64,000 bases of DNA from a virus (Duplodnaviria > Heunggongvirae > Uroviricota > Caudoviricetes), in the IMG/VR virus record IMGVR_UViG_651053023_000001, positions 1 through 64,000 of that record. One strand, given 5' to 3'. A program made the position numbers and the translations under genes. How positions within the stretch are numbered: the stretch's first letter is position 1; the number at the start of each line of letters is the position of its first letter. Below, piece by piece: positions 2,071 to 64,000 of the stretch. A model generated the notes under the pieces. It did not search any database, was not told where the DNA came from, and saw only the letters and a program-made list of their open reading frames with translations.

Positions 2071-3183
2071 TCATTCAGCCGCCACCGGTTTTAACAAGCC
2101 AGCATCGAGCAGTTTACGCGTCAACCACTGCTGGCCTTTACCCGTTAATTGAGGCGTCAGCCGTATCTGATAGCCATCTTCATCATCCAGCACCACTTCT
2201 TTCACTGTGAAATATCCGGCGTTTATGTACTGCTGAAACGGTACATTTTTACGTCCGCCGGACGCAATCAGGATGCCGTTCTCCCGTAACCAGGCAAACA
2301 GCGCATTTTGCTTAAGTCCAACAACCTTTGCAAAATTCCCAATCAGGATCCCCTTAGCCACTGATACCCGGTCGGCAAAATCGACCTTAGGGGCTGCGGC
2401 CACCAGCTGCTGATTTAGCTGGTGGGCTTTCTGTTCCAGAAGTTGCTTTTGTTCAGCCAGCTCGGCAGCCAGGCGCAGAGCTTCGGGAAGCGTCTGAGGG
2501 ATTGCGACCGGTTGCTGTTCTTTTTGCCGGAAGTAGCTGTCTTCCAGTTTTTCAAAGAATGCCCATGCCTGATCGGTTTCGATCATTTTAGCGTGGCGGG
2601 CTGCGCCGCGTTCCGTCCAGAGAGTGAGGTTTCTGGCGTTCTTACCAACAGAGTTACTAAAAGTAACTCTGTTCTTAAATTCTCTTAATTTTGAACCAGT
2701 TAAAAGAAAGTAGTGTTTACCTTCTTCAAAGCGATCGGAGTTGCAAGACAAATTTTTACGAATATTGCCTTCATCGGTTCCGTACCCCTTAGCAAGAGTT
2801 TCGGTTGTTACGACACGTACTCCCTGCCATTCCAGAACGGGAATTTCATCCGGCTGATTTTGAACAACCACCAGCTCCGATTCCTGAACTGAAGGTGCAT
2901 GAATTTTTTCTGATTTAACGTTAGTTGCTTTCATTCTGTGTGCCTCCTTGCGTGCTTCGGCTGCGACGGTTGCGTAATTCAGATGACCCTGTTCGAGCAG
3001 GTATTCGCGGATATCAGACAACAGGATACGGTGAACCGCGTGTTTGTCCTTTCTCCGGTAAAGTTGTTTGGTGATCATGAAGTAGTTGGCAATAACGCCT
3101 GGTATATCCCTGGTGCTGATACAGGCAGTGTGCTGTTCAATTGCCTCGATCATCTCTTCACGGGTGACTAATGACGTTCTCAT
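2071..3183 (-). CDS. antirepressor-like protein, copy A (ORF6N/Bro-N-like N-terminal region plus KilA-C/ANT C-terminal domain)
   Basis: 370 aa; C-terminal ~150 aa (PQTLPEALRLAAELAEQK...KVDFADRVSVA...GKGQQWLTRKLLDAG) shared with the canonical Ant (47170..48213) and with KilA; preceded by an icd-like ORF overlapping by ATGA. Confidence 0.8.
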   Translation of the reverse strand: MRTSLVTREEMIEAIEQHTACISTRDIPGVIANYFMITKQLYRRKDKHAVHRILLSDIREYLLEQGHLNYATVAAEARKEAHRMKATNVKSEKIHAPSVQESELVVVQNQPDEIPVLEWQGVRVVTTETLAKGYGTDEGNIRKNLSCNSDRFEEGKHYFLLTGSKLREFKNRVTFSNSVGKNARNLTLWTERGAARHAKMIETDQAWAFFEKLEDSYFRQKEQQPVAIPQTLPEALRLAAELAEQKQLLEQKAHQLNQQLVAAAPKVDFADRVSVAKGILIGNFAKVVGLKQNALFAWLRENGILIASGGRKNVPFQQYINAGYFTVKEVVLDDEDGYQIRLTPQLTGKGQQWLTRKLLDAGLLKPVAAE

Positions 3184-3401
3184 AGCCCCTCCTGAGCAGA
3201 AGCGTTAACAGGGAGGCACCAGTAACTGAGAGAATTGCGCAAATCGGTAGAAAAGCGGGCAGAGAAAATACAGGGAGCATCCGGAAGCTGAGAACGTGCC
3301 TCATCTTCTGTTGGTGCGATAACGAAGTGATAGTGACGTTTCTGGCAGGAGTAAAAGCGCCAGATAAATTCAGGGCGTGCGCAAGGATTGGCATTAACCA
3401 T
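3180..3401 (-). CDS. Icd-like small protein, copy A
   Basis: 73-aa ORF MVNANPCARPEFIWRFYSC... overlapping the ant start; same arrangement as icd-ant in the canonical immI copy. Confidence 0.7.
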   Translation of the reverse strand: MVNANPCARPEFIWRFYSCQKRHYHFVIAPTEDEARSQLPDAPCIFSARFSTDLRNSLSYWCLPVNASAQEGL

Positions 3402-4669: not shown

Positions 4670-4987
4670 TTACAATAGCTGCCCCATACATTGTCTCCAG
4701 GCACTCCCCTCATTACCGTTATCAAGAAACGTAGAGGTTGCATAAGGAATGCCTCTGATTTGTGTTGATGTGAATGGACCATCAGACGTCGAAGTTGTGC
4801 GCAGTTTTGATGTAAACTCGTAATTTCCACTGATGCCTTTCTCTGCCAGAGCTTTTGATTTTGTGATAACTAAATCTGCACATTTCTCTGCGGCTACATA
4901 TTGCGGGTCTTTTTCAGCTTTTCCGGCACATGCAGTTATCGTTAAAACGATAGCTGCGGCTAACAAATTACCTAGTTTCATCTGCAT
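4670..4987 (-). CDS. small lipoprotein (signal peptide with lipobox LTITAC)
   Basis: 105 aa; N-terminal MQMKLGNLLAAAIVLTITAC is a typical lipoprotein signal peptide with cysteine; two further Cys in the mature part. Confidence 0.55.
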   Translation of the reverse strand: MQMKLGNLLAAAIVLTITACAGKAEKDPQYVAAEKCADLVITKSKALAEKGISGNYEFTSKLRTTSTSDGPFTSTQIRGIPYATSTFLDNGNEGSAWRQCMGQLL

Positions 4988-18524: not shown

Positions 18525-18778
18525 TTAACTATTATCGCCTTCGCCTGCGTGCCATATATTTGCGCACCGCGCGGCGTGGACAATCTGAAGCGGTTTCTTT
18601 CTGCTGCATCAATCTTGCAGCCATGCTCAAAAATGTCAAGCACAGCCGAAGCCCAGCATACAATAGCGGTTCCAGTGGCCACGTCTCATTGAGCACATAT
18701 ACCGCCATGAAAATCGAGTCGAAAACTATCGCCGCCAGCGATAACTTCATTGTCGAAAGTCGGCGGAGCTGCCGGAGT

Positions 18779-19336
18779 TTATTCATTGATCAGCCCCGTC
18801 AGGCAAAGCTGGCGTTCTTTTTCACGGCGAATCTTTAAACCTCGCAGGGGCACGCCGTTACTGTTCACAAAATCAGGGAGATGGTTACACATATTCACCC
18901 ATTCCCCTTTCTGCGCCCACTTGTGGATGGACGTTTCGACTCGCATGCCTCGCGCTTTGCTGTAGTAGGTCCGTAAGCTATTGCATCCCATATTGAATGC
19001 CGCGCTTGTCATTGCACTGAAGGCATTATCGGGCATGTCTTTGCCCCGAAAGTGCTGATTAATACAGCGTTCAGCGATCAGGATATTCTTTTCCCAATCA
19101 GCGGCGATTTGCTGGTCGGTTTTTCGCACACCCGGCGTTACCCCGTGTGTATTACCGATCCCGTCAGTCCATACCCCCGCCGGGCACATGTATGGATCAC
19201 GTCGGCAACCTTCAGCGTTACCAATCAGCTCAAGCCCCGCCTGGTTGGTTCGCACATTGCCATTACCCATCACGATGGTAATCATCACCGCGATAGCGCA
19301 AATTGCACCGCCTCCTGCGGCTGTTTTTCCCTTCAT
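18779..19336 (-). CDS. lyz: Lyz SAR-endolysin (T4-lysozyme-type with N-terminal signal-arrest-release segment)
   Basis: 185-aa product from internal ATG: MKGKTAAGGGAICAIAVMITIVMGNGNVRTNQAGLELIGNAEGCRRDPYMCPAGVWTDGIGNTHGVT..., recognised as P1 Lyz; track ORF has a 33-aa upstream extension. Confidence 0.9.
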   Translation of the reverse strand: MKGKTAAGGGAICAIAVMITIVMGNGNVRTNQAGLELIGNAEGCRRDPYMCPAGVWTDGIGNTHGVTPGVRKTDQQIAADWEKNILIAERCINQHFRGKDMPDNAFSAMTSAAFNMGCNSLRTYYSKARGMRVETSIHKWAQKGEWVNMCNHLPDFVNSNGVPLRGLKIRREKERQLCLTGLINE

Positions 19337-19469
19337 AAAGACCTCATAAGCGAATTTTTTACGCTCCAGGACAAACACCCATTCACAGCCAATACCGACT
19401 GACTCGATCCCTTTAGAAGGCACAGGATAATGCAAATCACTTGTTAGCTACGTTTCAAAGATATACATT

Positions 19470-27685: not shown

Positions 27686-28297
27686 TTAATTTCCTGCTTT
27701 CAGTTGCTTAAGACGACGTTTGAGTTCGCCATTCCGTGCCTTTTCGTTATTGAGTCGGCCCGTCTCCTTATCCAGCTTCGCCCGCAAATCAGTGATCTGC
27801 TGTTGATTGAAAGACACCGAATTCTGCGCGGACTTATAAGCGGCAACCACCTGAGCATTCCGCTGTTTTGCTTCTTGCAGGCGCTGAAAGTTGGATTTAA
27901 CTGCCGGTTTCTTGTCTACCGGATTGGCAACACGCTTCGCTTTGGCGATCAGTGATTTCTGGAATTTTGCGGAGTTTTTGCGGGCCGCCTGTCCCATGAC
28001 GGTACCAAGCGTCTTGATATCCGGCGACTGAGCGTTAGGAATAGCTTTTCCATTCAGTTTCACAGACGATATATCGCCAGTATCGTTTACCTGTATGGCA
28101 AGAATTTGTCCGTCGTTAAGAACCAGCTTTGCGGTTTTAACTTTAACGCCATCTTTCGTTGTTGCGCGGTTGCTGGAGTCAACCTCAATTACCGTAACCC
28201 CGGTTTTATTGATCGCCGCGATAAGGGATTTCAGCCCCTTTTCATTAACCTGGTCAAAATCGACCGTTGCATACTTATTTTTCGTCATCTGACACAT
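27686..28297 (-). CDS. hdf: Hdf-like protein
   Basis: 203-aa ORF immediately upstream of darA. Confidence 0.5.
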   Translation of the reverse strand: MCQMTKNKYATVDFDQVNEKGLKSLIAAINKTGVTVIEVDSSNRATTKDGVKVKTAKLVLNDGQILAIQVNDTGDISSVKLNGKAIPNAQSPDIKTLGTVMGQAARKNSAKFQKSLIAKAKRVANPVDKKPAVKSNFQRLQEAKQRNAQVVAAYKSAQNSVSFNQQQITDLRAKLDKETGRLNNEKARNGELKRRLKQLKAGN

Positions 28298-28718
28298 CCT
28301 GTGCGAGATTTATTACGTAACTTCTGCGGATTTGCTGAGTAACAGGGAAAATCCGATACAACGGGTTAATGAACGAGTCGCCATGCGTAACCATGACGTT
28401 GAAATGCCACAGTCGCTCTCCTTTACCCATATATTCAGTGGGTATGTACAACCATTCACTGTTTTCGCCCTGTTCAGCCGACGTCAGACAACGTTGTTCG
28501 CCTTCAATCACTGTCGTCGGCTTCTGAACATCGCGGATCCAATATCTGACCGTTGCGCCGCGCAAAAACGGGAATTTAGACCGGTATTTGAACGGCACCC
28601 GGATGAAACCCGGTTTAATTTCCACATCACCAAGTTCTAAGTGCGTGATGTCCTTGCGTTTTAGCAAATAGCGATCGGCTAAGGCTAACGCAAGAACGCA
28701 TACACCCCAGCCAATCAT
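28275..28718 (-). CDS. LydB-like antiholin (by position)
   Basis: 147-aa ORF directly downstream of a holin-like gene, 4-nt overlap. Confidence 0.45.
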   Translation of the reverse strand: MIGWGVCVLALALADRYLLKRKDITHLELGDVEIKPGFIRVPFKYRSKFPFLRGATVRYWIRDVQKPTTVIEGEQRCLTSAEQGENSEWLYIPTEYMGKGERLWHFNVMVTHGDSFINPLYRIFPVTQQIRRSYVINLAQDVSDDEK

Positions 28719-29044
28719 TTCCCGCCTCCCTTTTTCACCAAACTTGTAAGAACATTCAGAATGCTATCGATATTCACTCGTTTCATCCCTGAAATCACCT
28801 CATGACCGTTATTGCTGGCTATCGTTACCATTAAGTACGTAATTGATAACTCCCAGCCCTCGTGTTGCCCCAATAGGTACGCCACCGCGCCAGCTGTCAC
28901 TGCAACAAAGATCTCCGTAACCAATCCTAACAAATTGCCAGACTGGCGACCGTCTCGGACATCCATCAGGAACGTGCCTATCCCACCAATTACTGAAAGC
29001 AGGAGCGCAATAGCAACTGGAGCTAATTCCTGTGTGTCAAGCAC
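28715..29044 (-). CDS. holin-like membrane protein (LydA-like)
   Basis: 109 aa with three hydrophobic transmembrane segments and a charged C-terminus. Confidence 0.5.
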   Translation of the reverse strand: MLDTQELAPVAIALLLSVIGGIGTFLMDVRDGRQSGNLLGLVTEIFVAVTAGAVAYLLGQHEGWELSITYLMVTIASNNGHEVISGMKRVNIDSILNVLTSLVKKGGGK

Positions 29045-29111: not shown

Positions 29112-29393
29112 TTAAGAGGCATTTCTATTGAGGTGCGAATCGATAATCCTTTGTAACTTTTCAAGAATGAGCCTGTTATTGATGCTGCAAATAATAGTCA
29201 CGCAATTCTGAAGACTTTCATCCATACCCTTATATTCCGCGAAATACATGCCTATAAAGCCTGCAAGTACGGCAGCAATACACTCGGCCATCAATTGCCT
29301 GCATGACGCTTCGTAACGTTTTTCACGAACCCCATTCAGAAACGAATGCACCCCGCCAAGGATGGAGAGGAGCATTATTGTGAAATCACACAT
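29112..29393 (-). CDS. small membrane protein, holin-like
   Basis: 93 aa with two hydrophobic segments, upstream of the lyd-like genes. Confidence 0.4.
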   Translation of the reverse strand: MCDFTIMLLSILGGVHSFLNGVREKRYEASCRQLMAECIAAVLAGFIGMYFAEYKGMDESLQNCVTIICSINNRLILEKLQRIIDSHLNRNAS

Positions 29394-45817: not shown

Positions 45818-46339
45818 TTATTTCTTTTCTGGACAAGTAGCATTTGGCTGAATTCGAGTTTCATTATCTTTAGTTGAAATAAGCACAGCAAGCCCCGTTG
45901 TAAACTGGCATGCTTTACCAACTTGAGTTGAAGTGAACACCTTAGTTCCTTCTTTATAAGTCAGTGAAACACCTTCAACAATTGTTTTATCACTAACCAA
46001 AGAACCAGCCGCTGCACCAAGAGCCGCACCACCAGTACCGCCAGCTACAGCACCCAGTGTCGATGTGCCTTTAACATTATAACCGGCAACGCCCCCAGCA
46101 ACAGCTCCCAGTACCGCACCAAATGTCTGTGCCGCTTCTTTATTAGCTTTATTATCAACTTTCACTTTAGCTGGAAGCACAGAGATAATATTGACTGTCT
46201 TTGTTTCCTGCTTCGAATTCAATTGAGCGGTATCATAAACATCGGCAGCATAATCAGCACCGCTAGATTGACACCCAGAAAGAAGAATTGCAGATACAAC
46301 AAGAGCGCATAAAGTATACTTTTTAGACATAAGAATCAT
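45818..46339 (-). CDS. glycine-zipper lipoprotein (SlyB/Pcp-like)
   Basis: Lipobox ILLSGC; glycine-zipper GAVLGAVAGGVAGYNV...GAVAGGTGGAALGAAAGSL; AT-rich. Confidence 0.55.
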   Translation of the reverse strand: MILMSKKYTLCALVVSAILLSGCQSSGADYAADVYDTAQLNSKQETKTVNIISVLPAKVKVDNKANKEAAQTFGAVLGAVAGGVAGYNVKGTSTLGAVAGGTGGAALGAAAGSLVSDKTIVEGVSLTYKEGTKVFTSTQVGKACQFTTGLAVLISTKDNETRIQPNATCPEKK

Positions 46340-54415: not shown

Positions 54416-56122
54416 TTACTCAGAGTCACCGGCATCAATCGTGTCGCCGCTAATGAAGTTAAGCCCGCCTTTTTTGGCCATTGTCAGCGTTACACGAGTG
54501 AAGTAATCAGCGCCGTTGCGTGGGTGCATATCGTTGATAGCCGAACCCCACAGTGTGGTACGGTTGACCAGCGCCGGAGTGGTCGGATGCTGGAACGGGA
54601 TAGCCGGGACAGCATCACCAGTCACGAAGCCTGCTTTACCCGGATTTTCATCACGGACGTAGCACAGCACATCCATCGAGCTGAACTGAATGTTCTCTGT
54701 CGTTAAGTTCTTACAAATACCAGCAGGTACTTCGTACACTTTCACGTTACCGAACAGGGTACCGATGTAGTGAACATACGGAGTCTGGATATAGTCTTCG
54801 GCTGGCTGGAAGAAATCCTTCGGCAACTGTTTGAAGAAAGATGCTGCATCAGCACCAGCAAACATCCCCATCGCACCAGAAGATTTAACGCGCTCAATAA
54901 TGTCGCGATATACAGTCTGGAATTTGCCACGAATGATGGTTGCCCATACACCAAAGGACTGGTTAACCGGCAGAGCGATGTCAAAGGTGTCGGTCGCAAG
55001 AGTACGCCAGATCATGATGCGAAGACGCAGCATATCCTGTTCATGAGACAGGTATTCCTTCAGGGTGCGGAACTGTAGGGAACCCAGGTCCAGACCAAAT
55101 TCACGCTGTGCTTCATACGCTGCCTGTACCGTGTGCTCAGCCGCGATAACGAACTGACTTGGGAACAGGGTGTATTTCTTCATTTCGTGGTTGATCAGCG
55201 GGATCAGCTCAGGAGCGGCTTCAATATTGATTTCCGTCTCAATTGCGATCTCAGTGCCTTTATCCGGCGCTTTGGAGAACGACAGGGCAATCTGACCAAT
55301 GTTGTAGTTCAGAGAGCAGGTAACAGTGATTTGCTCACCAGCAGCATTAGTAAACGAGTGAAGTAGGCTGCCGGAACCGTTATCAACAACAGACTTAATA
55401 CGGTTAACGTAGATGTTAGTGCGACCTTTTCGGATTGGTACATTCTGGCCTTCGAAGTCTTCCATCTTGAAGGTTGCGGTTTTGCTAGTGCCATCGGAGC
55501 TTGCCACCAGCACATAGCGGCGACGTAACTGGCTGTACACACCGACGGATTGCATGTCCAGAACATCACCAGCAGCATAAGAACCAAAAGAGGAACCTGC
55601 CACGTTAAAGACTTCATAGATGTCGGACTGGTCACGCGTAACCGGAATGAAGGTACACGCATCAGCGGTAGCTGCCCCCAACTGAACAGGCAGGATCATC
55701 GCGAGGAATAAAGGCAGACGCATAACACCGTCAGAAACGCTCATCATCTCTGCTGCGACGGATTCCAGCATCGCTTTATTAGTGGCATCCATGCTATTGC
55801 GGGTGGACTCTATCAGGCAGTTTTCCAGCGTCTGGTGGCAGGAGGCCAGAATTTCCGGACGCGGCATAGATTTATGTGCTGCGGCGTAGTCAGCCAGTGC
55901 ACTTGCCCACGCTGTAGCGATTTGAGCGGTGGCATTATCAGAGATACCCGCAAAAACCGGGTCTTTACGTGCAGCTTCAAGGATAGATGCGGCACGCGCG
56001 GCATCATCTTTAATGAATTGGTTATCAGTACCGAACTGCGCAGTGCTTGCCCAGCCAAGCACAGCTTTAGAGCGTTTTGCGATATCTGCAATACGATTCT
56101 GGTATTCGCGTAAGTTACTCAA
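54416..56122 (-). CDS. putative major head (capsid) protein
   Basis: Start placed at TTG 56122 with AAGGAAGAG upstream (track ORF starts 56143); adjacent to parS as P1 gene 23 is. Confidence 0.5.
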   Translation of the reverse strand: MSNLREYQNRIADIAKRSKAVLGWASTAQFGTDNQFIKDDAARAASILEAARKDPVFAGISDNATAQIATAWASALADYAAAHKSMPRPEILASCHQTLENCLIESTRNSMDATNKAMLESVAAEMMSVSDGVMRLPLFLAMILPVQLGAATADACTFIPVTRDQSDIYEVFNVAGSSFGSYAAGDVLDMQSVGVYSQLRRRYVLVASSDGTSKTATFKMEDFEGQNVPIRKGRTNIYVNRIKSVVDNGSGSLLHSFTNAAGEQITVTCSLNYNIGQIALSFSKAPDKGTEIAIETEINIEAAPELIPLINHEMKKYTLFPSQFVIAAEHTVQAAYEAQREFGLDLGSLQFRTLKEYLSHEQDMLRLRIMIWRTLATDTFDIALPVNQSFGVWATIIRGKFQTVYRDIIERVKSSGAMGMFAGADAASFFKQLPKDFFQPAEDYIQTPYVHYIGTLFGNVKVYEVPAGICKNLTTENIQFSSMDVLCYVRDENPGKAGFVTGDAVPAIPFQHPTTPALVNRTTLWGSAINDMHPRNGADYFTRVTLTMAKKGGLNFISGDTIDAGDSE

Positions 56123-56254
56123 TTTACTCTTCCTTAAACACAAGGCACTTGTGTGAATCCCTTTTCGGAAGAGATTTTATTGAAAGTCACTTGTTGACTT
56201 TCTCGTGACAAGCAAATTTTTATTTTTTTCGGGAGGAGGGGAGGAAGGTAAAAT

Positions 56255-60260: not shown

Positions 60261-60296
60261 AAAACCGGCCAACATAGCCGGTTGGAAGGAAGGGTA

Positions 60297-60689
60297 TTAT
60301 TCTACGCTTTCGATAAGAAGACCATGTTCATAACATTTAAGCTCATCGCCTTCGTACAGGAATTGGTATCCAATACCACCATTTTCATGGACATTAGGGA
60401 ATAACTCATAACTCACTGAAGAGCAAATCACACCAATGCAACGCTCAACGCCTTCTCGTTCTTCAGTGCTGAAAAAATCCTCTTCGGTAAGAACATGAGT
60501 ACATTGCTCATCAGCATAGGTCGGAAATACATGCTCGATGCAATCCGGGTGTTTTAAACCAAGCTGATCGGCAAGCTCGAAAGCATGACGGTATTGTTCA
60601 GATCCTGGCTTGCCAACAGTGATGTGCTCAATTTTGTAGATTGAAGTCGCTTTGTTGATAGTTTGCTTTACTGTTACTTTATCAGACAT
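60297..60689 (-). CDS. hypothetical protein downstream of the replicon (upfA position)
   Basis: 130-aa ORF. Confidence 0.5.
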   Translation of the reverse strand: MSDKVTVKQTINKATSIYKIEHITVGKPGSEQYRHAFELADQLGLKHPDCIEHVFPTYADEQCTHVLTEEDFFSTEEREGVERCIGVICSSVSYELFPNVHENGGIGYQFLYEGDELKCYEHGLLIESVE

Positions 60690-60700
60690 AAAAATCCCTT

Positions 60701-61033
60701 TTAGTTACCGCTGATAGCGCGGTTGTAATCATTAACGTTGCGATTCTTCCTGTTAATCCCCATCAGCATCGTTTCTGTATCGAGGATATACGCTGGCAGA
60801 TCATCAAAATATTCACTGCTAAACTCTGGCATCCTGCACATAAATGCACTTTTTGGGGCAGGGTGGTTAACCTTTGTCGGCGTCGGCGTTAAATTCGCTG
60901 ATCGACTCCCGGAGCAACCGCTGAGTGTCAGCAGGAATACGCTGGCGAACATTACCCGCCGCAACAAGTTGTTTCTGAACTTCAGCTTTTCGTTCCATTT
61001 GCCTGTCAGCATACTTGGCTTGTTCTGATTCAT
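60701..61033 (-). CDS. lipoprotein (lipobox LTLSGC) with proline-rich mature N-terminus
   Basis: Signal peptide and lipobox within track ORF; real start probably the internal Met; begins inside the 3' part of the upstream gene in another frame. Confidence 0.5.
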   Translation of the reverse strand: MNQNKPSMLTGKWNEKLKFRNNLLRRVMFASVFLLTLSGCSGSRSANLTPTPTKVNHPAPKSAFMCRMPEFSSEYFDDLPAYILDTETMLMGINRKNRNVNDYNRAISGN

Positions 61034-61316
61034 TTTTCACTTCCTGGCTGTGAAAATGTTGCTCTGCTTTGTTCATCGTCTCAATGGTCTGGTTAAGATC
61101 CATTATTGACTTATCACGTTCCTTAACAGCCTGATCAAGACTGCCAATTTTCTCCATGGCTTGCTTTAGCTGATGACGTTCCCACGCAAACCCAGCACCA
61201 ACAAGTGCGCAAATCAGAACAAGAACACCAGTAGCAGCAAGTTTCTCCTTCAAAGACAAAGCTGTTTTTAACGTAGAAAAGAATGACATGTCTTCCTCCT
61301 GAAGAAAAATTATCAA
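60867..61316 (-). CDS. membrane-anchored coiled-coil protein
   Basis: N-terminal hydrophobic anchor ATGVLVLICALVGAGFAW followed by charged helical region; 3' end overlaps the lipoprotein gene. Confidence 0.5.
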   Translation of the reverse strand: MIIFLQEEDMSFFSTLKTALSLKEKLAATGVLVLICALVGAGFAWERHQLKQAMEKIGSLDQAVKERDKSIMDLNQTIETMNKAEQHFHSQEVKNESEQAKYADRQMERKAEVQKQLVAAGNVRQRIPADTQRLLRESISEFNADADKG

Positions 61317-61328
61317 TGAAGTCCTTTG

Positions 61329-61682
61329 TTACCGTGCCGCTTTGTTTAATTCATCAAGAACAGAATCAGGAACCAAAGCGGCGACTGCGCTGGCTGTGCT
61401 GGCCTTATTTGCTGATGCTTCCGCAAGCGCGGTACCGATAGCATGGTTATAAGCAGTTATGGCTACGTTGGCGCTTTCATTCGCTCGTTCATACTGCTGT
61501 TGTAACGCAGTTGTGAGTGCTGTTGTCTGGTTGAAAACAACCCCAAACTGTTCAGTTGCTACTTTCAGAGATTCAATTTGCTCTTCTGTTAGTGCTGGTG
61601 GGGGAGTGGCAGTGCCGCCGCCTGAACCAGAGCCTGACGAGCTTCCTGAGCCAGTGTTAAGGGTCTGGTTAATCTCCCCCAT
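61329..61682 (-). CDS. hypothetical Gly/Ser-rich protein
   Basis: 117-aa ORF with N-terminal GSGSSSGSGSGGG tract. Confidence 0.45.
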   Translation of the reverse strand: MGEINQTLNTGSGSSSGSGSGGGTATPPPALTEEQIESLKVATEQFGVVFNQTTALTTALQQQYERANESANVAITAYNHAIGTALAEASANKASTASAVAALVPDSVLDELNKAAR

Positions 61683-61795
61683 AGCAGCGACTAAACTTGA
61701 TCGATAGGAATTTAAATCCCCAAAAGACTAAAAAAGCACCACAAAACGGATGTTTCTTCAACACCCCTTGTGCACCATATGAGCGGAAACGACTA

Positions 61796-63169
61796 TTAAA
61801 CAGGATGACACTGATTGATACAGGGTATGAATGGCGGTTTTTTGCTCCGTTTCCGGTAAAATGGACGCAACTTCCCCTCTGCGGCTCTCAGCCGCACACC
61901 TGCTGTCGTGCCAAGTCGCTCATGCATCAGGACCAGCTCTGCCAGTCGGTAACCCCGCTTCAGCCCCGTAAAACGCATCTGACTTCCGCACAGAATGCAC
62001 TTCAGCGGGTCAACCTTCAGTAACCTCTGATACATCCCTCTCCACCTGATTTGCATCGCCGTTTTTCTCACCGTCTCCGTTATGACGTACACAACTTCTT
62101 CCAGTAACCGGCGCTTCACCGGACTCAGGAAACCGTAGTACCTCACCATACGGAACCCCTTATCTGCTACATGCCAGGAGAACCTTTCCATGAACTCATC
62201 TCCACTCATCAACAGGTATTCTTCCCGTTTTGTACGGTGACTGTTGTAACGCAGACCGATTTCATCCTGACCGGCATAATGCTCCAGCCGACTCATCGGC
62301 ACCGGTGGCTTTTTCAGGTAAGAGCCGAAGTACACCGCCACATGTGTGGCGTTATCCATCACCCTGGATATGTTGACATTCCAGCCGCGGCGGTAATGCG
62401 TGTCCAGGAAGCAATTCCAGTCCCGTTTGCTGTTTCCTTCCACTGCCAGTTCATCCGGTATCACCAGCTCCGGGTATTTCCGGGACAGTAGCCGCGTTAT
62501 CCGGTAACGCCACATGCTCATCACCTTACGGGCGTAAAAATGAAGATTTTTCCAGGTGTGGCCCGACGTCACACCACCGGCAGTTGTCGATAAATGGATA
62601 TGCGGATGCCACTGCTGGTCACGCCCCCATGTGTGGATCACCGTGAATATCCCCGGCTCCACATCTGTCTGATGGCAGATTTCCAGTATCACATCCGCTG
62701 CAATGCGGCTCATCTCTGCCAGTAACCACCGGTTGTGGAACACCAGGGACCAGTACTGGCAGGGAAGTGTGAACACAATATGCTGCCACGGGCAGTCGGG
62801 GACCAGGCTCAGCAGATACTGTATCCACTGTGCGCCAGCCTTCACCCCGCAGTGCGGACAGGAGCGGCTTTTACACCGGAAGCAGACCTTTTTGGTGTGG
62901 CAACAGTCCGGTGACGAACAGCACCATTGCGTGTAGCCCATCAGCGTGGTCCCGCATGCCATGATTTTTGTCACTGACTCAGTCACCACCGGACGCACTG
63001 AACCTTCCGGCTGTTTCTCCAGCCAGTTAAGCCAGCGGTTACCCTGCTGAAAAATGTCGGCAAAACGGGGAAGCATCAGAAGGCGGGGGGACTCCGTCCG
63101 GCCAGTGAACCGTGCCACACTCCGGGCAGTACATGCCGCCGGCGCTGATACCGGCAAGAATGGTCGCAA
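61796..63169 (-). CDS. tnpA: IS91-family (Y2 HUH, rolling-circle) transposase
   Basis: 457 aa; N-terminal Cys-rich zinc-binding region (CCSSPDCCHTKKVCFRCKSRSCPHCG), HUH motif HPHIH, conserved RYYGFL block; true start may be internal. Confidence 0.75.
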   Translation of the reverse strand: MRPFLPVSAPAACTARSVARFTGRTESPRLLMLPRFADIFQQGNRWLNWLEKQPEGSVRPVVTESVTKIMACGTTLMGYTQWCCSSPDCCHTKKVCFRCKSRSCPHCGVKAGAQWIQYLLSLVPDCPWQHIVFTLPCQYWSLVFHNRWLLAEMSRIAADVILEICHQTDVEPGIFTVIHTWGRDQQWHPHIHLSTTAGGVTSGHTWKNLHFYARKVMSMWRYRITRLLSRKYPELVIPDELAVEGNSKRDWNCFLDTHYRRGWNVNISRVMDNATHVAVYFGSYLKKPPVPMSRLEHYAGQDEIGLRYNSHRTKREEYLLMSGDEFMERFSWHVADKGFRMVRYYGFLSPVKRRLLEEVVYVITETVRKTAMQIRWRGMYQRLLKVDPLKCILCGSQMRFTGLKRGYRLAELVLMHERLGTTAGVRLRAAEGKLRPFYRKRSKKPPFIPCINQCHPV

Positions 63170-63440
63170 ACTCCCGCTCCGTGCAGCGGGCTATTTCAGG
63201 ATACCCTTCGTCATCGACACGAACAAACCAGAAGACCAGCTTTTTGTTTCCGGCATCCACAAAGAAGGGAATATTCAGGTCTGCGCAGCACTCAACGGCA
63301 TCGTCAAAATTATCAAAGCGCAGAGCTTCTGCGTCTTCTTCGTCAAAGAAGTCATCGTCGTGAAGCTTCACGACATAGCGGGGAAGTTTGCTTCTTTGAG
63401 GGGCAGGTTTTCGTTTACGGGGTTTAGCTGAACGGGACAT
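63039..63440 (-). CDS. small ORF upstream of and overlapping the IS91-family transposase gene
   Basis: 133-aa basic/acidic ORF with CxxC pair; position matches the small accessory ORF of IS91-type elements. Confidence 0.4.
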   Translation of the reverse strand: MSRSAKPRKRKPAPQRSKLPRYVVKLHDDDFFDEEDAEALRFDNFDDAVECCADLNIPFFVDAGNKKLVFWFVRVDDEGYPEIARCTEREFATILAGISAGGMYCPECGTVHWPDGVPPPSDASPFCRHFSAG

Positions 63441-63946
63441 ATAACTACCTGAAAGACAATGATATTGTCTGTTTTTATAACGGTAATTTCAGGCCATGAC
63501 AAGCCGCAGCCGCCAGGCTGCCTACTCGATGTATTAAGCGCGTTTACAGCGTCCTCAAGCGATTTAGTAATAGTCACATCACCAATGGCAATAGAGATCG
63601 GCAGTTCTGATACTTCTCGCTCATTAGCACGGCAGTAAACATCCCAACCAATATCGAGTTGAAGCAGCATTGACAGATCTGCATAACCAGCCAACAGGTC
63701 CGCGTGCTTAGTTGCCAGTTCTCCAATGTTCGTTAAGCCGGTTGTGGTTGTTCTGATCGTTGAAACATAGCTGGTAATAGTGTCGGGATAGACAATTGTA
63801 TCCAGAATTAATCCGGTCAATTCTTCTGCAAGCAGTTTTGCTGTGTTAGCACTGTTTCGTGCCGATGTTATGGCACCAGGTGTTTTCATCCCACCGGCGG
63901 CGGCCAATTTTTTATATGCGGATAACTGGTAGTCTTTTTCCAGCAT
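63368..63946 (-). CDS. hypothetical protein, possibly 3'-disrupted by the IS91-family insertion
   Basis: 192-aa ORF whose 3' portion runs into the presumed IS end and overlaps the IS-internal ORF. Confidence 0.35.
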   Translation of the reverse strand: MLEKDYQLSAYKKLAAAGGMKTPGAITSARNSANTAKLLAEELTGLILDTIVYPDTITSYVSTIRTTTTGLTNIGELATKHADLLAGYADLSMLLQLDIGWDVYCRANEREVSELPISIAIGDVTITKSLEDAVNALNTSSRQPGGCGLSWPEITVIKTDNIIVFQVVICPVQLNPVNENLPLKEANFPAMS

Positions 63947-64000
63947 GATATCTCCTAACTTACCTGAACCAGGCCGTCTCCGGACGCTACGGTAGATCCG

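Follow-up and report, generated by a model that had tools for sequence, protein, structure and literature searches.

In phage lambda, the inner-membrane protein Rz has an N-terminal anchor, two periplasmic domains of helical structure connected by a linker, and two periplasmic cysteine residues, and its partner Rz1 is a small outer-membrane lipoprotein with a proline-rich segment, having a signal peptide of 19 residues and a mature length of 40 residues. The rz1 frame is the +1 frame of the partner's DNA and is wholly embedded in rz, and both genes are located directly after the genes encoding holin and endolysin. The LysB/LysC system of phage P2 shows the overlapped architecture, whereas the genes encoding the functional T4 spanins PseT.3 and PseT.2 do not overlap at all. 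In the latter pair, periplasmic cysteine residues are absent from the i-spanin PseT.3 and are found, two in number, in the o-spanin PseT.2, which exceeds Rz1 in size and is predicted to have a C-terminal helix. In T4, both spanin genes lie unlinked to those for endolysin and holin. Across 528 two-component spanins, 507 possess at least one periplasmic cysteine. The criteria for two-component spanins applied in the following are those of Summer (2007) and Kongari (2018).

For phage P1, ppfA and mlp are already known as a predicted spanin pair, having been put forward in 2007, curated in SpaninDB and annotated in RefSeq. In SpaninDB (Kongari, 2018), P1 is classified as 'ovl', with gp064 as overlapped i-spanin of 140 aa (104 periplasmic residues, no periplasmic cysteine, 'one in TMD') and gp063 as overlapped o-spanin of 110 aa (71 residues in the mature form, lipobox TLSG, one periplasmic cysteine, LipoP cleavage after residue 39, 'Too long signal sequence', no Prosite match). 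Both proteins are assigned there to two-member families consisting of P1 and P7, a protein being admitted to a family if no less than 40% of its periplasmic domain aligns with a member at 40% identity or more. The same assignment is found in Bednarek (2022), where it is credited to Summer (2007) as a prediction only and the P1 spanin genes are placed 'in yet another unlinked operon'. In RefSeq, mlp is named 'Rz-like spanin', and several GenBank records use the names Rz and Rz1 for the pair. Moreover, in a survey of P1-like phage-plasmids, mlp and ppfA are listed among 21 'extremely conserved' genes. Hence, the Rz/Rz1-type spanin pair proposed in a first-pass annotation from the nucleotide sequence corresponds to the published assignment (SpaninDB, Bednarek 2022, the RefSeq and GenBank names, and the PHROG profiles described below), in all of which the function is a predicted one, and the discovery value is small, as the pair has been the predicted P1 equivalent of Rz/Rz1 since 2007. 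P1 serves, however, as a workhorse of phage research, and resistance genes are spread by phage-plasmids of its type; the lysis system of P1 is unusually scattered, and the predicted spanin pair is one part of the description of this system.

The stretch of DNA analyzed here (64,000 nt, referred to as the window) is derived from a P1-type phage-plasmid. Over a segment of 801 nt around ppfA/mlp, nucleotide identity is 98.8% with phage P1 (NC_005856) and 99.6% with other P1 records, and the neighboring genes are P1-like as well, with parA, incA, repA, oriR and upfA on one side and upfB on the other. The pair is therefore that of P1, and the overlap of 167 nt, the ribosome sites, the lipobox TLSG↓C and the neighbors (upfB upstream, upfA and repA downstream) are identical in P1 and P7. 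Compared to the P1 reference, PpfA has M45 in place of I45 and Mlp has L23 in place of W23; with this single amino acid difference per protein from the P1 entry, both fall into the SpaninDB families of P1 and P7. The PpfA sequence is 100% identical to the PpfA of several P1-like phages. The elements of the locus are as follows.

60867..61289, minus strand: ppfA coding sequence, 140 aa, predicted i-spanin, anchored at the N-terminus, with some 104 aa of helical sequence in the periplasm
61295..61300, minus strand: Shine-Dalgarno sequence AGGAGG of ppfA, 5 nt before the ATG, read from the sequence and given at the same site in SpaninDB
61182..61241, minus strand: codons of the PpfA TM segment, residues ~17-36, LAATGVLVLICALVGAGFAW, the Kyte-Doolittle maximum
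60701..61033, minus strand: mlp coding sequence, 110-aa precursor and 71-aa mature protein, predicted outer-membrane o-spanin lipoprotein
61040..61045, minus strand: Shine-Dalgarno-like AGGAAG of mlp, before the ATG; SpaninDB marks AGGA here
60914..60925, minus strand: lipobox codons L37-S38-G39-C40 of Mlp, located by regular expression and hydrophobicity
60867..61033, minus strand: dual-coding overlap of 167 nt, encoding residues 86-140 of PpfA together with residues 1-55 of Mlp
60263..60283, minus strand: terminator-like hairpin with a T run behind it, immediately past upfA, from a consensus scan only

Transcription of the upfC-upfB-ppfA-mlp-upfA unit probably ends at the hairpin at 60263..60283.

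For ppfA, the longest open reading frame (60867..61316, minus strand) begins with TTG, and it is in this extent that the first-pass annotation had reported a membrane-anchored gene. The frame and its membrane anchor were correctly recognized, but the start was likely not TTG 61316. Most likely, the true start is ATG 61289, nine codons inside the longest frame, because it is preceded by AGGAGG at a spacing of 5 nt and the same start is used in the P1 record, where ppfA has 423 nt and is listed as gp064, as well as in SpaninDB. Counted from this codon, PpfA is strongly hydrophobic in a single segment, residues ~17-36 (Kyte-Doolittle value of 2.35 over 19 residues), and the 16 N-terminal residues ahead of it include three lysines and one glutamate. 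We infer a type II topology (N-in, C-out). The sole cysteine of PpfA is located inside the TM segment, leaving none in the periplasmic part, which comprises 104 residues, of which 35% are charged, and is low in glycine and proline. In the AlphaFold2 model (20 homologues, mean pLDDT 71), a helix traversing the TM segment is predicted for residues 13-110, followed by a break at 111-119 and another helix at 120-139, and a mostly helical periplasmic domain is supported by this prediction of moderate confidence. A crude, home-made score for heptad periodicity was reached by 58 of 500 shuffled sequences and was therefore not significant, so that the coiled coil named in the first-pass annotation is not supported by it. 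Searching BFVD with the PpfA model by Foldseek did not result in any match at E ≤ 0.001, as expected with a single long helix, and a PDB sequence search gave nothing meaningful, with no solved relative.

The second gene had been described as encoding a lipoprotein with a lipobox at 60701..61033 and a proline-rich mature N-terminus, and both statements hold, the latter in a moderate sense. Mlp starts with a basic stretch of 27 residues, followed by an uncharged hydrophobic run and the lipobox LSG↓C at Cys40, in line with the LipoP cleavage given in SpaninDB. Lipidation is predicted to occur at Cys40, and since the residue at +2 is serine and not aspartate, sorting to the outer membrane is predicted. 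Mature Mlp has four prolines in its first 23 residues and six in all 71, and contains one further cysteine, Cys66. In the AlphaFold2 model, short C-terminal helices can be seen, but at a pLDDT of 57 this low-confidence structure is a hint only. At 39 residues, the signal peptide is unusually long. Met8 and Met28, which would result in shorter signal peptides, were considered as alternative starts and rejected, as neither is kept in diverged relatives; Met28 is replaced by valine in some P1-like loci. Conservation extends to the first ATG with its ribosome site but not to Met8 and Met28, from which we argue that the long signal peptide flagged as 'too long' by SpaninDB is likely real and not the consequence of a miscalled start. 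Public gene calls routinely omit mlp, shorten it or merge it with ppfA; the merged calls of 195 aa, carried for instance by ERR14116099 and GCA_002535195.1, may be real frameshift alleles or homopolymer sequencing errors. For annotators, the conservation of the start site and this routine miscalling of mlp may be the useful part of the present analysis.

The mlp frame starts 256 nt into ppfA, shares 167 nt with it in the +1 frame and continues for 166 nt past the ppfA end, substantiating the out-of-frame overlap of anchor and lipoprotein genes noted in the first-pass annotation. With both genes adjacent and the i-spanin gene first, this arrangement corresponds to the 'overlapped' spanin class. 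The part of Mlp encoded by the overlap comprises the signal peptide and the first, Pro/Thr-rich residues of the mature form. A relaxed six-frame search of the 64 kb for lipobox-containing ORFs gave about six hits, among which mlp alone overlaps a gene for a membrane-anchored protein.

An open frame in and after ppfA might also have arisen by chance and stay untranslated. Gene callers usually skip or truncate mlp, and in the long ORFs of the window, 7.6% of the 55-codon windows in the +1 frame are free of stop codons by chance, although so low a share also speaks against an opening of this kind. However, purifying selection acts on both frames, and both are real genes. Among the close relatives (79 P1-like viral contigs from IMG/VR), 16 of the 21 variable sites in the mlp-only segment are at third codon positions (p = 7e-5), and the ppfA-only segment shows 20 of 36 (p = 0.005). 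An intact Mlp of 110 aa is encoded at every one of the 79 loci and an intact PpfA at 78, and the LSGC lipobox is invariant throughout. Four diverged relatives, from Cronobacter, Salmonella, Klebsiella and one unassigned sample, with PpfA identities of 59-64%, all have the same layout of 589 nt without indels and have kept the lipoprotein ORF in the +1 frame. In comparison with these, 97 of 164 substitutions in the mlp-only segment are at third positions (p = 1e-11). Their lipoboxes read LSAC, LNGC or LNAC, and the mlp start codon with an AGGAGG site is found one codon off the P1 position. None of the relatives, neither the 79 loci nor the diverged ones, has lost Cys66. Retention of lipobox, Cys66, start codon and ribosome site at this degree of PpfA divergence, together with the third-position bias, leaves hardly any probability for a chance frame, and this explanation of mlp can be regarded as effectively refuted at the sequence level.

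The overlap itself is more conserved than the ppfA-only part, with nucleotide identities to the diverged relatives of 0.75-0.78 versus about 0.60. Changes within it mainly affect third codon positions of ppfA, which are second codon positions of mlp, and this pattern matches an Mlp signal peptide that is poorly conserved in its N-terminal part (22-30% identity), as compared to the nearly invariant C-terminus of PpfA in the diverged relatives. The best-conserved parts are the C-terminus of PpfA (RQRIPADTQRLLRESISEFNADA) and the C-terminal half of Mlp, which is suggestive only of a contact between both proteins at these sites.

With regard to the systems mentioned at the beginning, PpfA resembles lambda Rz in its predicted N-terminal inner-membrane anchor and, according to the moderate-confidence AlphaFold2 model, in a helical periplasmic part divided in two by a break, and Mlp resembles Rz1 as a small predicted outer-membrane lipoprotein with a proline-rich segment encoded in the +1 frame of its partner. 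In contrast to the fully embedded rz1, mlp reaches 166 nt beyond its partner gene; mature Mlp is longer (71 residues versus 40), as is its signal peptide (39 versus 19), and the two periplasmic cysteines of Rz have no counterpart in PpfA. Similarity of PpfA to Rz is not significant (BLASTP E = 0.26; hhalign profile-profile probability of 1.6%), and the alignment of Mlp with Rz1 is limited to the signal peptide and the proline-rich stretch (E = 0.005 in a single comparison). The cysteine distribution is closer to that of T4, as PpfA, like PseT.3, is without a periplasmic cysteine and the o-spanin provides it, with one residue (Cys66) in Mlp versus two in PseT.2; having one such cysteine, the P1 pair also accords with the 507 of 528 systems mentioned above. 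Short C-terminal helices are seen in the low-confidence Mlp model, as a C-terminal helix is predicted for PseT.2, whereas the gene overlap sets ppfA/mlp apart from pseT.3/pseT.2. In sharing the overlapped architecture, the P1 pair is like P2 LysB/LysC, and among NCBIfam models the best matches are indeed P2 LysB (TIGR03495) for PpfA and P2 LysC (NF038368) for Mlp. Both are sub-threshold, however, with 19.0 bits versus a cut-off of 92.75 and 14.7 versus 27, respectively. The P1 proteins are not equivalogs of LysB and LysC, and the two matches, though coherent, give no more than a hint of a remote kinship with this classic overlapped pair.

Profile comparisons are consistent with the spanin assignment. 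PpfA matches PHROG 89 'Rz-like spanin' at E = 1.5e-25 (positions 3-137 of the 143-position profile) as well as PHROG 739 and PHROG 214, both also 'Rz-like spanin', and Mlp matches PHROG 30284 at E = 2.6e-77 and PHROG 456 at E = 2.8e-5, again both 'Rz-like spanin', though these matches are maybe partly circular because the P1 proteins are probably among the PHROG source sequences. No Pfam family was found at threshold for PpfA or Mlp. In a tblastn search of PpfA against 50,697 phage records, only P1-like phages were retrieved, even at E values up to 10, and a profile-guided IMG/VR scan for PpfA resulted in 80 loci, all of them 96-100% identical. Homologues of PpfA residing in canonical lysis cassettes were not among these matches. 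A search for Mlp among 5.8 billion proteins gave 28 clusters, all P1-like and mostly made up of truncated calls. Consequently, ppfA/mlp is Rz/Rz1-like by architecture, yet forms its own small sequence family.

In contrast to the lambda genes, the P1 pair is remote from the remaining lysis functions. The P1 lysis genes are present in the window. Each of them is encoded on the minus strand and has a match among the PHROG lysis families.

About 18779-19339, minus strand: lyz, PHROG lysis family match
18532-18786, minus strand: lydD, PHROG lysis family match
28275-28718, minus strand: lydB, PHROG lysis family match
28715-29044, minus strand: lydA, PHROG lysis family match
29112-29393, minus strand: lydC, PHROG lysis family match

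As had been remarked in the first-pass annotation, ppfA/mlp lies far from these genes, with lyz/lydD at 18.5-19.3 kb and lydC/A/B at 28.3-29.4 kb of the window, corresponding to distances of about 41 kb to lyz and about 32 kb to lydA/B. The comparison with a curated spanin database suggested at that time leads to the SpaninDB listing of P1 gp064/gp063 as an overlapped pair. In a six-frame search of the 64 kb, no other lipobox ORF was found near lyz/lydD or lydABC, and ppfA/mlp is therefore the sole two-component spanin candidate in the window.

Taken together, we regard it as likely that ppfA-mlp represents a two-component spanin of the 'overlapped' architecture in this P1-type phage-plasmid. 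PpfA, as dimers, would be held in the inner membrane by one N-terminal TM helix, exposing its mostly helical domain of about 104 residues to the periplasm. Mlp would be exported via the 39-residue signal peptide, lipidated on Cys40 and, with serine at +2, transferred to the outer membrane, probably forming a homodimer via Cys66, its single conserved periplasmic cysteine. Binding of both proteins through their conserved C-terminal parts, as in lambda Rz/Rz1, would then establish a periplasm-spanning bridge. Such bridges would be restrained by the peptidoglycan mesh until, upon triggering of the holins LydA and LydD, degradation of the wall by the SAR endolysin Lyz sets them free, whereupon they would cause fusion or disruption of both membranes and complete lysis. 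Complex formation, disulfide linkage, membrane fusion and expression timing are parts of this scheme that we infer from the lambda and T4 paradigm.

Position and expression of the genes could also be explained by functions outside lysis. The pair adjoins repA/oriR/par and is distant from all lysis genes, and in the P1 record only predicted sigma-70 promoters are given for ppfA/mlp. A late-promoter -22 box was not found upstream of ppfA, upfB or upfC, although the motif is derived from the single LPlyz example and is thus too weak for concluding on absence; the same search recovered lyz and, ahead of gene 23, a site that looks plausible. A sigma-70 consensus scan gave sites no more numerous than in shuffled sequences. 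CRISPRi knock-down resulted in EOP values of 1.3 ± 1.2 for ppfA and 0.24 ± 0.19 for mlp, and both were scored as non-essential for plaques, in an assay that reads plaques and not lysis kinetics and with a knock-down strength varying among targets. This unaffected plaque formation, the promoter predictions and the position next to the replication and partition functions, along with the lack of significant lambda Rz/Rz1 similarity and of a Pfam match, would be compatible with a non-lysis envelope complex, involved in superinfection exclusion, envelope modification or a plasmid-related process and being spanin-like in topology only. We consider this unlikely, as the combination of a membrane anchor, an out-of-frame lipoprotein and a periplasmic cysteine is the defining one for spanins, the PHROG spanin profiles match both proteins, the P2 LysB/LysC models match weakly, and an alternative spanin candidate is absent from the 64 kb. 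A location apart from the lysis genes has a precedent in T4 pseT.3/pseT.2. Likewise, dispensability for plaque formation hardly discriminates, since spanins are generally dispensable for plaques in standard laboratory conditions (Bednarek, 2022).

In a variant of this idea, the proteins would indeed connect both membranes, but as a constitutive or early bridge belonging to the plasmid-prophage lifestyle and not as the lysis spanin of P1-type phages. Such a role fits the position at the replication and partition genes, the missing recognizable late promoter and the plaque dispensability, and would imply that P1 breaches the outer membrane in another way; we deem it improbable. Even less can be said for a function in modulating the timing of lysis instead of disrupting the outer membrane, which we judge to be very improbable. 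It goes back to the note on mlp in the P1 record, 'possibly involved in regulation of lysis (by homology)', and would suit a lysis system that is unusually complex, with several holins and an antiholin (Bednarek, 2022). This wording, however, is older than the spanin concept and stems from a time when Rz1-like lipoproteins were without known role, the authors of the follow-up to the P1 genome paper now refer to spanins, and neither PpfA nor Mlp has any holin- or antiholin-like feature. Hence, a spanin function in lysis is the reading that we prefer for ppfA/mlp.

Finally, the window differs from P1 and P7 in that upfB is split. An IS91-like element (61698-63523) interrupts this gene about 400 bp upstream of ppfA, in the same orientation as the pair, and this insertion could alter the transcription of ppfA and mlp.

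PpfA is, as predicted from sequence, the membrane-anchored i-spanin and Mlp the lipoprotein o-spanin of the pair, matching SpaninDB (Kongari et al., 2018; compare the Introduction of PMC9025707). Good lipoprotein signals also occur in two other ORFs of the window, neither of which shows an mlp-style overlap with, or adjacency to, an N-terminally anchored partner gene:

4670-4981, minus strand: ORF of 103 aa (MKLGNLLAAAIVLTITAC...)
45818-46330, minus strand: Gly/Ala-rich ORF of 170 aa (…LLSGC…)

Gene callers usually miss mlp or shorten it to calls of 46-52 aa starting downstream of the lipobox, as is seen in MH422554 and in two loci of diverged P1-like relatives:

L002 (MH422554), 3102-3242: shortened mlp call
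L004, 3449-3589: shortened mlp call
L005, 3431-3589: shortened mlp call

The 'Rz1' annotation of MH422554 comprises only 141 nt, and Mlp is represented by only 28 protein clusters versus 76 for PpfA, the missed or shortened calls illustrating the caller bias against overlapping genes described by Kongari et al. (2018).

Proteins of 195 aa representing a PpfA-Mlp fusion are numerous in public databases (P0003, P0010, P0017, P0019, P0028, P0039, and P0046), with the position of the frame switch within the overlap differing among entries. Such an ORF is the outcome of any 1-nt deletion inside the dual-coding overlap of ppfA and mlp, and all five contigs checked (fusion-related loci L089-L093, deletions equivalent to window positions 61037, 61000, and 60875) have lost one base from a short run of A (A5 to A4 or A3 to A2). 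These deletions may be real alleles or sequencing errors; in the A5 to A4 allele, located at the mlp start, Mlp stays intact.

Directly upstream of ppfA, upfB is interrupted by an IS91-like element, both flanks being P1 sequence again with a junction ambiguity of 3 nt:

61698-63523, same orientation as ppfA-mlp: IS91-like element of 1826 bp
61796-63169, minus strand: transposase ORF of the element
61329-61697 and 63524-64000+: flanking upfB fragments

Such an insertion may have a polar effect on the spanin pair, or ppfA-mlp transcription may instead be driven by it.

Comparison of P1, the window and four diverged relatives reveals a variable slot directly downstream of mlp, in which a Gp49-like gene (PF13876) stands in place of upfA in three of the relatives, while no gene was called there in the Klebsiella relative; in phage JL22, a blaCTX-M-55 module is likewise inserted in upfA.

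Window, 60297-60689: upfA, present there in P1 too
L004, 3600-3959; L005, 3600-3953; L007, 3597-3965 (diverged relatives): Gp49-like gene
Window, 60263-60283, minus strand: terminator-like hairpin with a stem of 9 pairs, then a T run

The hairpin lies 14 nt past the upfA stop and likely marks the end of an upfC-upfB-ppfA-mlp-upfA transcription unit.

Elsewhere in the window, a late-promoter-like site lies just upstream of the probable gene 23 (major head protein), a 586-aa ORF at 54419-56176:

56174-56192, minus strand: AAGTGACTT-N4-TAAAAT

Considering this position and the single mismatch to the -22 box in LPlyz, the annotated P1 late promoter of lyz and the single example from which the motif was derived, the site is probably the late promoter of gene 23.
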